From: a virus
Taxonomy: Duplodnaviria > Heunggongvirae > Uroviricota > Caudoviricetes
Virus record (IMG/VR): IMGVR_UViG_2541047798_000001
Direction: 5' to 3' (one strand)
DNA: 9,836 nt
The translations under genes were made by a program, and so were the position numbers. Below the pieces are notes generated by a model. It had not been told where the DNA came from and made no database searches. It saw nothing but the letters and a program-made list of their open reading frames with translations. Of this stretch, positions 1 to 7,063 are shown piece after piece (position 1 is the stretch's first letter; every line of letters starts with the position of its first letter).

Positions 1-1239
1 ATGAGCAGGGCAATTCATAGACTTAGCGACACTCTTTTACGAAAATTAAGCGGATCACCAACCACAAAAAACACCTTTTTTAATGATGGTGGCAACCTTA
101 GCGTAAGGCATTCAACCAATGGCCTGTTAACCTGGTATTTCACTTACAGGGCCGGAACAGGCAGGAAGGTAGCCCCTGAACGTCTGAGGCTGGGAAATTA
201 TCCAGATTTGAGCCTGAAAGCAGCCAGGGAAAAAGCGTCGCAGTGTCGCGCCTGGCTTGCTGAGGGTAAAAATCCACGCCATGAGCTTAATCACACCGTA
301 CAGGAAGCGTTATCACCTGTTACGGTTAAGGAAGCGCTCACTTACTGGCTTGAATCGTACGCGAAGGAAAAGCGCACAGATTACGAATCTCTGAAAAGCC
401 GGATCAATACACACATAATCAGCCATATTGGTGCTATGCCGCTGGAAAAATGCGAGCTACGCCACTGGCTGACCTGTTTTGATCAGCTTGCTAAGCGTAA
501 TCCGGTATCAGCAGGATTTTTGTTACAGGTATGCAAGCAGGCGCTTAAGTACTGCCGCAAACGACGCTACGCAATTACCAACGTTCTAGATGATATGGTT
601 GTAGGTGATGTTGGGAAAAAAGCAGAAATAAGCGAGCGCATACTAACAAACAAGGAGCTTGGGGAATTACTCCGCGCCCTGGATGAAAAAATTTACCCAC
701 CGTACTACAGCGCCCTGATTCGCCTCCTGATTGTCTTCGGATGTCGTACCACTGAGCTAAGACGCTCTGAGGTCCAGGAATGGGATTTTAAAGAAATGCT
801 CTGGACCGTGCCGAAAGAACATAGCAAAACGAAGGTAGCAATATTCAGGCCAATACCGGAAGCGATCTTGCCGTTCGTAACGAAGCTGGTGGAGCAGAAC
901 AGGCACACGGGATTATTGCTCGGAGAACTGAAAGGGCAATCATCCGTATCAGAGTACGGAAGAACGGCACACAGACGTATTAATCAAGCCCCCTGGACGT
1001 TGCACGACATCCGGCACACGTTTACAACGATGCTGAACGATTTAGGCGTGGATCCTCATGTAGTGGAGCAGCTAACCGCGCACCAGTTGCCAGGAATGCA
1101 ACGAGTCTATAATCACTCCCGTTATCTTGATGCAAAACGTGACGCTCTTAATCTATGGGTTGAGCGTCTCGAGCTTCTCCAGAACAATGATGAAAAAATC
1201 GTTGTTATGACCCCGCGAATTTACTCCCAAAATTCTTGA
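1..1239 (+). CDS. int: Tyrosine recombinase / integrase, P4 (CP4-57) type
   Basis: 412-aa ORF. N-terminal arm-binding (DUF4102-like) region (GLLTWYFTYRAGTGRKVAPERLRLGNYPDLSLKAAREKA); C-terminal catalytic domain with HxxR box (LHDIRHTFTT) and catalytic Tyr context (VYNHSRY). Confidence 0.9.
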   Translation: MSRAIHRLSDTLLRKLSGSPTTKNTFFNDGGNLSVRHSTNGLLTWYFTYRAGTGRKVAPERLRLGNYPDLSLKAAREKASQCRAWLAEGKNPRHELNHTVQEALSPVTVKEALTYWLESYAKEKRTDYESLKSRINTHIISHIGAMPLEKCELRHWLTCFDQLAKRNPVSAGFLLQVCKQALKYCRKRRYAITNVLDDMVVGDVGKKAEISERILTNKELGELLRALDEKIYPPYYSALIRLLIVFGCRTTELRRSEVQEWDFKEMLWTVPKEHSKTKVAIFRPIPEAILPFVTKLVEQNRHTGLLLGELKGQSSVSEYGRTAHRRINQAPWTLHDIRHTFTTMLNDLGVDPHVVEQLTAHQLPGMQRVYNHSRYLDAKRDALNLWVERLELLQNNDEKIVVMTPRIYSQNS

Positions 1240-1648: not shown

Positions 1649-1858
1649 ATGCGCGAAATAAATGAAGATCGTGTAATCCGCGAAAAAGAATGCAGAGAGC
1701 TAACAGGCGTTTGCCGCACAACTCGTTACGAGATGGAAAAGCAGGGCCGCTTCCCCTCACGTATCAGTCTCGGCGGTCGTTCTGTTGGCTGGGTTAAGTC
1801 TGAGGTTATGGAATGGGTTAAAAGCAGAAATCGTATTAATTCAGGTAAGGCAGCGTAG
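1649..1858 (+). CDS. alpA: AlpA-family phage regulatory protein (excisionase-like HTH)
   Basis: 69 aa; SD AGGA about 6 nt upstream of the ATG; signature GGRSVGWVKSEVMEWV and preceding TGVCRTTRYEMEKQGRFP match the Phage_AlpA/Vis family; positioned directly after int as in P4-like and PICI elements. Confidence 0.85.
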   Translation: MREINEDRVIREKECRELTGVCRTTRYEMEKQGRFPSRISLGGRSVGWVKSEVMEWVKSRNRINSGKAA

Positions 1859-1884
1859 GGGGAACATATGACACATAAAACAAA

Positions 1885-1904
1885 GGCGACCTGTGGCGGT
1901 CGCC
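1885..1904 (-). terminator. GC-rich hairpin GGCGACC-tgtggc-GGTCGCC between convergent alpA and the minus-strand regulator; T-rich tract follows on the minus strand
   Basis: 7-bp perfect stem; on the minus strand it is followed by TTTGTTTTATGTGT; about 90 bp downstream of the minus-strand gene stop. Confidence 0.4.
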
Positions 1905-1992: not shown

Positions 1993-2172
1993 CTATTCCT
2001 GCTCTTTGGCCTTGCGGCGCTGGCGGCGTTTGATTTCGCCGCGCATGGCTGCGTTTATAAACTGTCCCGTGCTTTCGCCTTCTTCTTTCACGTTCTCCAT
2101 GCCTTCAATAATTTCATGGGCAATACGTGCAGTTACAGATTGTGATTTTGCATTCTTTGGACCCGTTGCCAT
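1993..2172 (-). CDS. Small DNA-binding protein, probable ribbon-helix-helix (Arc/CopG-like) repressor
   Basis: 59 aa from the internal ATG of ORF 1993..2211 (MATGPKNAKSQSVTARIAHEIIEGMENVKEEGESTGQFINAAMRGEIKRRQRRKAKEQE). SD GAGGGG lies 6 nt upstream of that ATG. N-terminal beta-strand-like KSQSVTARI followed by two predicted helices. Operator-like repeats lie in its promoter. Confidence 0.45.
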   Translation of the reverse strand: MATGPKNAKSQSVTARIAHEIIEGMENVKEEGESTGQFINAAMRGEIKRRQRRKAKEQE

Positions 2173-2192
2173 GTTTAACCCCTCATGTTTTT

Positions 2193-2275
2193 GGTGTAAG
2201 ACAATATACACGAAAAAAAAATATTTTGAAGGGTTGACGTGTAAGACACCATTATTTTACATTGTGTCTTACACC
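2193..2275. promoter_or_regulatory. Divergent promoter/operator region: three copies of GTGTAAGACA(C) at 2194-2203, 2239-2249 and inverted at 2264-2274
   Basis: Repeats read from sequence. Copies 2 and 3 form an inverted pair separated by 14 AT-rich bp and overlap a candidate TTGACG(2234)-N18-TACATT + strand promoter; copy 1 sits just downstream of a candidate minus-strand -10 (TATATT). Confidence 0.5.
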
Positions 2276-2371
2276 TTATTGATGAAAGGCACAGAAACGA
2301 CGAAACCCCGCACTGTAGGAGCAGTAACGGGGCTTCTAACCACCAACGATAGCAACAGTATCGAGGTAGCT

Positions 2372-2575
2372 ATGAGAAATCATACCACACACCCGAAAGG
2401 GCGGGACTCGCACAACCTGAATAAATACATCTGGCGTTTTATCGCCCTGAGCACGGCACAACCGCGCGTGATTACCATTGAGGCCACCAGCGAACAGGAA
2501 GCACGCCAGCAATCCCCGGCTGGCTGCGTGATGGTATTCGCCGCCCGTATTCGTCAGGGGGTGTGCCATGCCTGA
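2372..2575 (+). CDS. Small protein, possibly Icd-like (host cell division inhibitor family); first gene of the replication operon
   Basis: 67 aa (MRNHTTHPKGRDSHNLNKYIWRFIALSTAQPRVITIEATSEQEARQQSPAGCVMVFAARIRQGVCHA); SD GAGGT 4 nt before the ATG; the pattern IEATSEQEARQQ...VMVFAARIRQG resembles Icd-like proteins of P4-type elements as recalled. The rest of the 235-aa ORF 1868..2575 is treated as spurious. Confidence 0.4.
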   Translation: MRNHTTHPKGRDSHNLNKYIWRFIALSTAQPRVITIEATSEQEARQQSPAGCVMVFAARIRQGVCHA

Positions 2576-6343: not shown

Positions 6344-6353
6344 GGGGGTGACG

Positions 6354-6602
6354 ATGGTACATGACCGCATAGCGGAAGAACTCGAAGCGAAAGGATTTTA
6401 CCGGAGGGCGGCGGCGCGATGGGGTGAAGTCATGATGCTGGTGGAGACAGACAAGGAACGGCATCACATCACGATGCGACGGCTGGAATGTTCCAGGAAG
6501 GCACAGAGGCCACCGGAGCCGCCAACGGAGAACTATGCAGACCTGAGAAATGCAGTAAATCGCACTTACGCAGACATGGGGCTGAGCAAATTAGCAGAGT
6601 AG
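6354..6602 (+). CDS. PerC-family transcriptional regulator-like protein
   Basis: 82 aa from the internal ATG at 6354 (SD GAGGGGG; begins 10 nt after the ssb stop). Motif AEELEAKGFYRRAAARWGEVM matches the PerC/Pch signature as recalled. The upstream part of ORF 6234..6602 overlaps ssb and is rejected. Confidence 0.5.
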   Translation: MVHDRIAEELEAKGFYRRAAARWGEVMMLVETDKERHHITMRRLECSRKAQRPPEPPTENYADLRNAVNRTYADMGLSKLAE

Positions 6603-6856: not shown

Positions 6857-7063
6857 ATGGCTGAAGAGAAAAAAGGCGGTGTTTCGGTGTACATAAGCCC
6901 CGACATCGTGAAGGCGCTCAAGGAACGCCACCAGCAGAACGTAAAAGCAGGCATTGCGGCAGGACTTGATCCGCTGGCGATGGTTGAGCCGTCAACAGGC
7001 TGGCAGGTACGCGCCTATTTACGCGCGGCGCTGGGTATGAATCAGGTTCACGGGGGTGAATAA
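6857..7063 (+). CDS. Hypothetical small protein (68 aa), first gene of the capsid operon
   Basis: SD AGAGGA upstream; stop overlaps the capsid ATG (TAATG). N-terminus (GGVSVYISPDIVKALKERHQQ) is compatible with a ribbon-helix-helix fold, but this is uncertain. Confidence 0.5.
   Translation: MAEEKKGGVSVYISPDIVKALKERHQQNVKAGIAAGLDPLAMVEPSTGWQVRAYLRAALGMNQVHGGE

Follow-up and report, generated by a model that had tools for sequence, protein, structure and literature searches.

The 9,836-nucleotide stretch of DNA considered here (hereafter the window) is IMG/VR virus record IMGVR_UViG_2541047798_000001, the open reading frames (ORFs) and domain matches of which identify it as an Escherichia coli phage satellite, or phage-inducible chromosomal island (PICI), with a gene set matching that of the prototype Gram-negative island, EcCICFT073. 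Between alpA and the replication genes lies a small minus-strand gene, the 59-aa product of which is probably a ribbon-helix-helix (RHH) transcriptional repressor with GTG-N5-CAC as its predicted operator. An earlier note on this DNA had proposed that the protein is an autoregulated repressor gating satellite replication, and had cast it as a candidate master switch in place of the activator AlpA. The first part of that proposal was strengthened by the predicted fold, the conserved layout of gene and sites, the co-variation between protein and site, natural recombinants and two further protein types, whereas the role as a switch replacing AlpA was not supported. The position described in the note was confirmed by ORF order and domain matches, the small gene being convergent with alpA and divergent from a rightward operon that runs from an Icd-like gene to a primase gene.

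The small gene starts at ATG 2172-2170, 6 nt downstream of a GAGGGG ribosome-binding site (RBS), and the same start Met is present in all 39 aligned homologues. A 72-aa version with a GTG start at 2211 was considered implausible, since the start would overlie both the operator O1 and the small gene's -10 box. Profile comparison assigned the protein to NCBIfam NF041551, 'YlcI/YnfO family' (64.8 bits against a cut-off of 30, E 5.2e-18, residues 9-50), the name also given to its RefSeq orthologues, and to PHROG 949, a group of unknown function. The family is small, with 89 representatives found by profile search among 1.84 billion 50%-identity clusters, and the named matches of the first homologue search were from Enterobacterales only. 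A search of the literature on YlcI/YnfO found no described function.

An AlphaFold2 model built on the homologue alignment (predicted local distance difference test score, pLDDT, 88) is extended over residues 1-18 and forms two helices, 19-28 and 35-58. The predicted layout comprises a beta-strand at about residues 10-17, helix A (19-28), a G-E-S-T turn (32-35) and helix B (35-58), which carries the conserved basic stretch EIKRRQRRK. Across the 39 homologues the turn, of G-x-S/T form, is invariant or nearly so from G32 to T35 (G32 nearly invariant, E33 and S34 invariant), and S10 and R16 are likewise conserved or invariant. The succession of alternating N-terminal strand, short helix, conserved turn and long second helix seen in the alignment is an RHH signature, and the beta-strand, helix, helix arrangement of about 45 residues is that of the RHH (MetJ/Arc/CopG) superfamily. 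A fold search with the model returned SvtR and AmrZ, HicB, ORF56, Omega, TacA, NikR and MazE9, as well as Arc, TraM, PutA and CopG. The fold that the earlier note had recognised at the N-terminus is, then, predicted to be RHH on the strength of structure modelling and motif rather than of sequence homology. Residues 10, 12, 14 and 16 are either invariant or vary with the core of the sites described below, and residues 11, 13 and 15 are mostly hydrophobic; this alternation gives indirect support to a dimeric antiparallel sheet entering the major groove.

The motif GTGTAAGACA occurs exactly three times in the window (2194-2203 and 2239-2248 on the plus strand, 2265-2274 on the minus strand), all within 81 bp, and it was not found upstream of alpA or elsewhere in the window; three copies near the small-gene promoter had been noted earlier. 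In a shuffle control allowing up to 1 mismatch, the mean number of matches was 0.32 and three were reached in 1 of 200 shuffles. The 11-mers O2 and O3 form a perfect inverted pair (GTGTAAGACAC / GTGTCTTACAC) that brackets the candidate promoter of the rightward operon, TTGACG-18 nt-TACATT, again as first described. O1 overlaps the promoter of the small gene, the -10 block of which is kept in related loci (GTATAC in the consensus of all loci), and is likely to be the autoregulatory site of that gene.

The conservation of this arrangement was assessed in about 40 related elements overall, with a scan of one genome per species yielding 31 loci from Escherichia, Citrobacter, Kluyvera, Yokenella, Raoultella, Serratia, Yersinia, Pectobacterium, Limnobaculum, Samsonia and other genera. 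The gene order common to most of them is int, alpA, convergent small gene, an intergenic region of about 220 bp, Icd-like gene and primase. The layout proved rigid across the 38 loci that were compared. In 33 of 34 loci an O1-type site, (G)GTG-N5-CA, begins at nt 22 counted from the start codon of the small gene, while the -35 element TTGA is situated 61-63 nt from the ATG in all 34, and at 62 in 30 of them. The second site follows directly after TTGA and the third is found 9-25 nt beyond the second. O1 usually deviates slightly from O2 and O3, and may therefore be a weaker site. Within one protein type represented in several genera, the sites and promoter boxes have been kept and the spacers have drifted, constituting a phylogenetic footprint.

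The general form of the sites across loci is GTG-N5-CAC. The GTG and CAC flanks are common to all loci, 5.14 of 6 positions being identical between protein types, and the central 5-nt cores agree at 4.48 of 5 positions within a locus but at only 1.51 of 5, or about chance, between loci with differing beta-strand types. The distance between beta-strands was correlated with the distance between cores (Mantel r = 0.72, reached in 0 of 5000 permutations), and the correlation persisted among 17 non-redundant types (r = 0.32, 1 of 5000 permutations). Resolved by residue, the association with the core falls on positions 12 and 14 (r = 0.33 and 0.45, 0 of 3000 permutations); values for residues 11, 13 and 15 were about 0.1, and positions 10 and 16 do not vary. 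Residues 10, 12, 14 and 16 share one face of the beta-strand, the face that RHH proteins insert into the major groove. The residue 12/14 pairs go with particular cores: S/T with TAAGA or TAAGC, Q/N with CGATT or CTATG, S/K and A/K with GGCCA, and M/T and L/T with TATTT or TGTTT. Two beta-strand types that were absent from the first set and were looked up afterwards both matched the prediction in layout and had new cores, these being TTTAA in O2 and O3 and TTCAA in O1 for the Edwardsiella type KSQTIAARV, and GGTGC in all three sites for the type KSQKMSARV. Recognition of short, repeated sites close to the promoter under control, a trait of the RHH superfamily, is what the position and co-variation of the sites point to.

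Two further members of the family were also inspected. E. coli O157:H7 PV15-279 (L039, cspD/clpS site) encodes at 2196-2501 a 101-aa variant of the protein, in which about 42 residues are inserted inside helix B (GEIARRQAEGSGENLL...EELQRRKAKEQE) and the S12/T14 strand is kept; the site cores at this locus are TAAGA, TAAGC and TAAGT, and the insertion may represent a longer oligomerisation helix. The name-giving member, ylcI of prophage DLP12 in E. coli K-12 (L036, 4252-4446), is RHH-like in sequence (RNIRFPNQMIEQINIALEQKGSGNFSAWVIEA), adjoins cos, and is divergent from and upstream of nohD, which encodes a homologue of the small terminase subunit. Inspection by eye of the K-12 ylcI locus did not reveal the three-site GTG-N5-CAC layout, and the branch of the family found in prophages may serve another purpose.

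Comparison of near-identical elements revealed that gene and sites vary as a unit. The window is 100% identical to element L001 (NCTC9112) over positions 1-2040, and 80-100% identical to element L002, and identity to both then falls to 33-70% over 2041-2350 before returning to at least 90% from 2351 onwards. Within the variable block are both promoters, all three operators, leader hairpin 1 and the coding sequence for the first 43 or so residues of the protein; all types have in common the basic C-terminal helix (EIKRRQRRKAKEQE), which is encoded outside the block. A block of the window type, at 99% identity or more, is present in 11 complete E. coli genomes and occupies several different places in the chromosome, and a 99.7% identical cassette occurs in elements with unrelated integrase (Int), AlpA and primase. 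One such element, in E. coli SCU-106 (L037, 326908-336217), is a satellite inside a prophage portal gene, that is, a helper-embedded PICI (HE-PICI), and has an unrelated integrase and AlpA in addition to a BRO-N gene.

These elements provide natural recombinants in which the determinants of the core can be separated. Between the window and NCTC9112, Int and AlpA are 100% identical, the Icd-like protein 95.5% and the primase 89.5%, whereas the RHH proteins are 59% identical, the NCTC9112-type protein carrying KSQQLNARF, and the cores differ (TAAGA against CGATT). Conversely, the window and the SCU-106 satellite have Int proteins that are 37% identical, AlpA 48%, Icd-like protein 91% and primase 42%, whereas the RHH proteins are 98% identical and the core is the same. 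In the third comparison, between CFT073 and a second element at the same integration site (L038), the AlpA proteins are identical and the cores differ (GGCCA against TAAGA), the RHH protein of L038 being of the window type and 73% identical to that of CFT073. Only the RHH protein tracks the core in these comparisons, not Int, AlpA, the Icd-like protein or the primase. Sequence comparison shows that the cassette is swapped by recombination among satellites, giving many specificity types. Four genomes carry two elements each (L013/L029, L025/L030, L019/L031 and L016/L022; three Pectobacterium strains and Yersinia pekkanenii), and the repressor/operator types differ in 4 of 4, a result that is not significant given the type frequencies but fits the idea of heteroimmune coexistence.

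A mechanism can be proposed in which one dimer would bind each 11-bp site, S10 and R16 contacting the conserved GTG/CAC flanks and residues 12 and 14, on the same strand face, reading the central 5 bp. Protein bound at O2 and O3 would, from the position of these sites, exclude RNA polymerase from the rightward promoter, and this occupancy would keep the operon for the Icd-like protein, DUF4222 protein and primase/replicase silent in the integrated satellite, while occupancy of O1 would result in negative autoregulation of the repressor. Induction would then require that repression be overridden by AlpA produced in response to a helper, and the most economical, albeit speculative, route is transcription from the alpA side passing antisense through the convergent repressor gene and into the operon. 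Read-through of this kind is favoured because the window has no plus-strand terminator between alpA and the small gene, and the repressor transcript is terminated. The U-tract 3' of that terminator stem exists on the minus strand only, and the terminator should end the small-gene transcript before it runs antisense into alpA, leaving plus-strand alpA transcripts free to read through. The small gene is on the strand opposite alpA, integrase and the replication arm in the window and in most loci where alpA and integrase were detected. A 235-aa plus-strand ORF at 1868-2575, which crosses the repressor gene in antisense and continues in frame into the Icd-like gene, is probably spurious, and is unannotated in related RefSeq records.

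The relation of the protein to AlpA can be gauged from EcCICFT073, which itself carries the module (L035, E. coli CFT073, 18474-18653; beta-strand KSQALKARV, sites GTGGGCCACAC). The published model of Gram-negative PICIs is built on AlpA as activator: in EcCICFT073, expression of AlpA alone leads to excision and runaway replication, deletion of alpA abolishes induction, helper phages switch on alpA transcription, and whether these islands have a global repressor is called 'unclear' (PMC6092414). Since EcCICFT073 has the module and is induced by AlpA, AlpA must act above or around the repressor, and a master switch as an alternative to AlpA, as the earlier note had it, is not supported. It is more likely that the RHH protein provides a layer of repression that AlpA overrides than that it is AlpA's rival. 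In the CFT073 annotation, the repressor and Icd-like genes have locus tags (C_RS30120 and C_RS30125) far out of series with those of their neighbours, which suggests to us that a later re-annotation introduced them; CFT073 also has an additional 57-aa minus-strand ORF at 18243-18416, downstream of the repressor gene. In a survey of satellites (PMC13612085), YlcI/YnfO is named among the accessory genes with no label beyond 'prophage-associated protein', and a study of HE-PICIs describes Bro-type proteins and immunity RNAs in this zone with no mention of YnfO or ribbon-type proteins. Literature searches combining PICI with ribbon-helix-helix or Icd-like, and on YlcI/YnfO, found no description of the module.

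Several observations weigh against a repressor of this kind. No Pfam family matched the window protein at E up to 10, Pfam barely detects the family as a whole (RHH_1 in 1 of 39 relatives, E 0.009, and RHH_5 in one, E 0.09), and a profile search of PDB sequences gave no significant match. The structural model is that of a monomer, from which the dimer and its DNA contacts are extrapolated; both promoters are consensus matches only; and the expression of the protein, its binding to DNA and the repression by and of it are deduced from sequence. The centres of O2 and O3 are 22-36 bp apart, which is wide for direct contact between dimers. The induction of EcCICFT073 by overexpression of AlpA alone means that the repressor is no independent lock, and alpA read-through as the mechanism of induction is speculative. 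Finally, gene and sites are adjacent, so that part of the co-variation could reflect shared descent. Mere linkage is nonetheless disfavoured, albeit without proof, because the three sites change together at each locus, which descent alone does not require, and because the signal falls on residues 12 and 14; the recombinants and the two protein types looked up later likewise speak against it.

Other explanations for the protein and its sites were also weighed. The protein might be a local housekeeping or antitoxin-like autoregulator, binding its sites only in order to restrain a toxic Icd-like inhibitor and having no part in quiescence or induction. This is unlikely, given that the DUF4222 and primase/replicase genes, the reading frames of which abut or overlap within the operon, appear to be transcribed from the promoter of the Icd-like gene as well, such that replication would be repressed too, and that the placement beside the replication arm has been kept in most loci. 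Moreover, the small gene is monocistronic in the window, with about 90 nt of untranslated sequence followed by its own terminator and no ORF partner, and a type II toxin-antitoxin module was rejected because no adjacent, co-transcribed toxin gene exists. Less probable still is a controller of copy number or late shut-off of the CopG or Omega type, acting mainly after induction as opposed to keeping the integrated element silent. Both CopG and Omega, which are RHH repressors of promoters for replication genes, are among the fold matches, Omega binds direct or inverted repeats, orientations that both occur here, and negative autoregulation at O1 would suit a sensor of dosage. However, the gene for CopG is inside the operon that it represses whereas the small gene is transcribed away from its target, the island is normally integrated as a single copy, and the exchange of cassettes resembles that of an immunity determinant more than of a copy-number control. 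A role in dosage is nevertheless compatible with repression in the integrated state, and the two could coexist.

An explanation that dispenses with the RHH protein, with the repeats forming an O2/O3 hairpin in RNA or DNA or being sites for AlpA, integrase, the Icd-like protein or a replication initiator (as iterons), is very improbable. The inverted O2/O3 pair of the window could indeed fold, and the PHROG families that match the Icd-like ORF are labelled 'transcriptional repressor'. However, O3 is direct for 12 of the 18 distinct O2 cores, and inverted for 6, such that a hairpin is not conserved, and a functional O2/O3 hairpin was rejected on this ground. AlpA, Int, the Icd-like protein and the primase were rejected as binders of the sites by the recombinants described above: the core changes completely where Int and AlpA are the same and the Icd-like protein is 95% identical, and is unchanged where Int, AlpA and primase are only 37-48% identical. 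The absence of the motif upstream of alpA and elsewhere in the window also speaks against binding by another protein. Control chiefly by an immunity RNA of the P1 c4 or P4 CI type, which was considered because the first gene of the operon is Icd-like, was rejected on the Rfam results, with no match in the whole window, leader hairpins included, at E up to 1, and only chance microRNA- and small nucleolar RNA-like matches, with no C4 or isrK, over 2150-2750 at E up to 10.

With an RHH repressor and its operators as the preferred reading, several known systems invite comparison. In the immI region of P22, the RHH repressors Mnt and Arc act at the divergent promoters Pmnt and Pant. The module resembles this system in having a small RHH gene divergent from the operon that it would control, operators on both back-to-back promoters and autoregulation, and Arc is among the fold matches; it differs in lacking detectable sequence similarity, in the content of the operon (Icd-like and replication genes, not an antirepressor), in the sites (three of 11 bp, spaced apart, against a single tetramer-bound operator of 17-21 bp), and in belonging to a satellite rather than a phage. 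From CopG of pMV158 it differs in gene position, as noted above, and from Omega of pSM19035, which binds contiguous 7-bp heptads, in having 11-bp sites 22-45 bp apart. The leader of the rightward operon has its own parallel, in that the operon order in P1 immI is c4, icd, ant, and the leader hairpins occupy a position corresponding to that of c4 RNA relative to icd. As in P1, an Icd-like gene comes first in the operon after a structured, conserved leader, although the candidate control here is a protein with DNA operators as opposed to an antisense RNA.

A further comparison is with Stl and Rpr of the Gram-positive PICIs, the Staphylococcus aureus pathogenicity islands (SaPIs), whose place in the logic of the element the module takes. 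Like the genes for these repressors, the small gene is divergent from the replication arm and adjoins the integration module. Stl and Rpr are, however, larger helix-turn-helix (HTH) proteins encoded in the same direction as int and inactivated by specific helper proteins, whereas the small gene encodes a 59-aa RHH protein on the strand opposite int, with alpA in between, and induction of Gram-negative PICIs proceeds via AlpA, unlike the binding of helper proteins by Stl and Rpr. We know of no helper-encoded derepressor of the 59-aa protein, and a tblastn search of 50,697 phage records gave no match for it, so that no helper-encoded homologue is evident. Stl and Rpr keep the island silent until the helper phage arrives (PMC6092414).

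The exchangeable block is reminiscent of the immunity mosaicism of lambdoid phages (imm-lambda, imm434 and imm21), where the DNA-reading part of the repressor and the operators likewise move as a sharply bounded block with near-identical flanks, and the same block is found in otherwise unrelated genomes. Unlike the lambdoid regions, the cassette spans only about 300 bp and ends inside the repressor gene, leaving the C-terminal helix common to all types. Heteroimmunity between satellites according to cassette type is, by analogy, a speculative extension.

Table 1. Features of the window in the order in which they occur.
Feature	Position	Strand	Basis or remark
Tyrosine integrase gene (int)	1-1239	+	ORF and domain match
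alpA, activator/excisionase-family HTH gene	1649-1858	+	Pfam Phage_AlpA, E 7.9e-18
Intrinsic terminator of small-gene transcript	1875-1904	-	Stem GGCGACC...GGUCGCC (1904-1885), then UUUGUUUUAU; scan and RNA fold of 1870-1995
59-aa YlcI/YnfO-family RHH gene, candidate repressor	1993-2172	-	ORF, NCBIfam, structure model
Exchangeable specificity cassette, ~300 bp	2041-2350		Sliding identity against L001 and L002
RBS GAGGGG of small gene	2179-2184	-	Read from sequence
O1, GTGTAAGACAA	2194-2204	+	Overlaps -10 box/start region of the small gene's own promoter
Candidate small-gene promoter	2203-2230	-	-35 TTCAAA (2230-2225), 16 nt, -10 TATATT (2208-2203)
Candidate promoter of Icd-like/primase operon, sigma-70-like	2234-2263	+	-35 TTGACG (2234-2239), 18 nt, -10 TACATT (2258-2263)
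O2, GTGTAAGACAC	2239-2249	+	In spacer, right after rightward -35
O3, GTGTAAGACAC	2264-2274	-	Starts 1 nt past rightward -10; covers expected transcription start
Leader hairpin 1 of rightward operon, ~12-bp conserved stem	2302-2336	+	Alignment fold and single-sequence fold
Leader hairpin 2 (CGATA...TATCG)	2342-2367	+	Overlaps or ends at GAGG RBS (2363-2366) of Icd-like gene
Icd-like gene (host cell-division inhibitor family), first in rightward operon	2372-2575	+	NCBIfam NF033153, E 1.4e-19
106-aa hypothetical gene, then DUF4222 gene, 3' of Icd-like gene in rightward operon			Pfam (DUF4222)
DUF927 primase/replicase gene, 712 aa	3176-5314	+	Pfam DUF927
SSB (single-stranded DNA-binding protein) gene, PerC/ANR-like gene, capsid and decoration homologues, in this order beyond primase

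Other features of the element are collected with the above in Table 1. Near-identical elements are inserted between cspD/yljB and clpS in E. coli chromosomes. An alignment fold of 24 loci revealed compensatory changes in 13 of the 17 pairs predicted in the rightward operon's leader. Hairpin 1 does not follow the type of repressor, and its apical part is inverted in the window relative to most loci with pairing retained. Between int and alpA, the window contains a 12-nt perfect inverted repeat (ATAAATCGTCGA / TCGACGATTTAT, 13 nt apart, 1281-1317), which could be a regulatory site upstream of alpA, and an 11-nt perfect inverted repeat directly past the int stop codon (1248-1273), which could be the int terminator. 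The regions 7063-8466 and 6351-6602 encode homologues of the lambda E-type major capsid and D-type decoration proteins, together with a regulator of the PerC/ANR-like type. In EcCICFT073 the capsid and decoration genes correspond to c1499 and c1500, no phenotype having been found for these (PMC6092414), and repression of the locus of enterocyte effacement (LEE) has been reported for a regulator of the PerC/ANR-like type in another PICI (PMC11773190).

Taken together, a broader reading can be put forward tentatively, although the balance of probability is somewhat against its holding in full. The YlcI/YnfO-family RHH protein would be the missing master repressor of Gram-negative PICIs, EcCICFT073 included, with the cassettes serving as immunity types and a convergent-transcription switch driven by AlpA. 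The protein would then be a functional counterpart of Stl that is built differently, several satellites would be able to reside in one cell without cross-repression, and induction would proceed by convergent transcription as opposed to inactivation of the repressor by a helper protein. The module is in any case a concrete candidate for the repressor that is missing from the published model, present in the prototype island itself, and offers the uncharacterised YlcI/YnfO family its first hypothesis of function; the relation between residues 12 and 14 and the central 5 bp can be tested through the exchange of a few codons or bases. Should the specificity types act as immunity types, they would govern which satellites coexist or cross-regulate one another, which would be of relevance to satellite ecology and to engineered PICI 'drones'.

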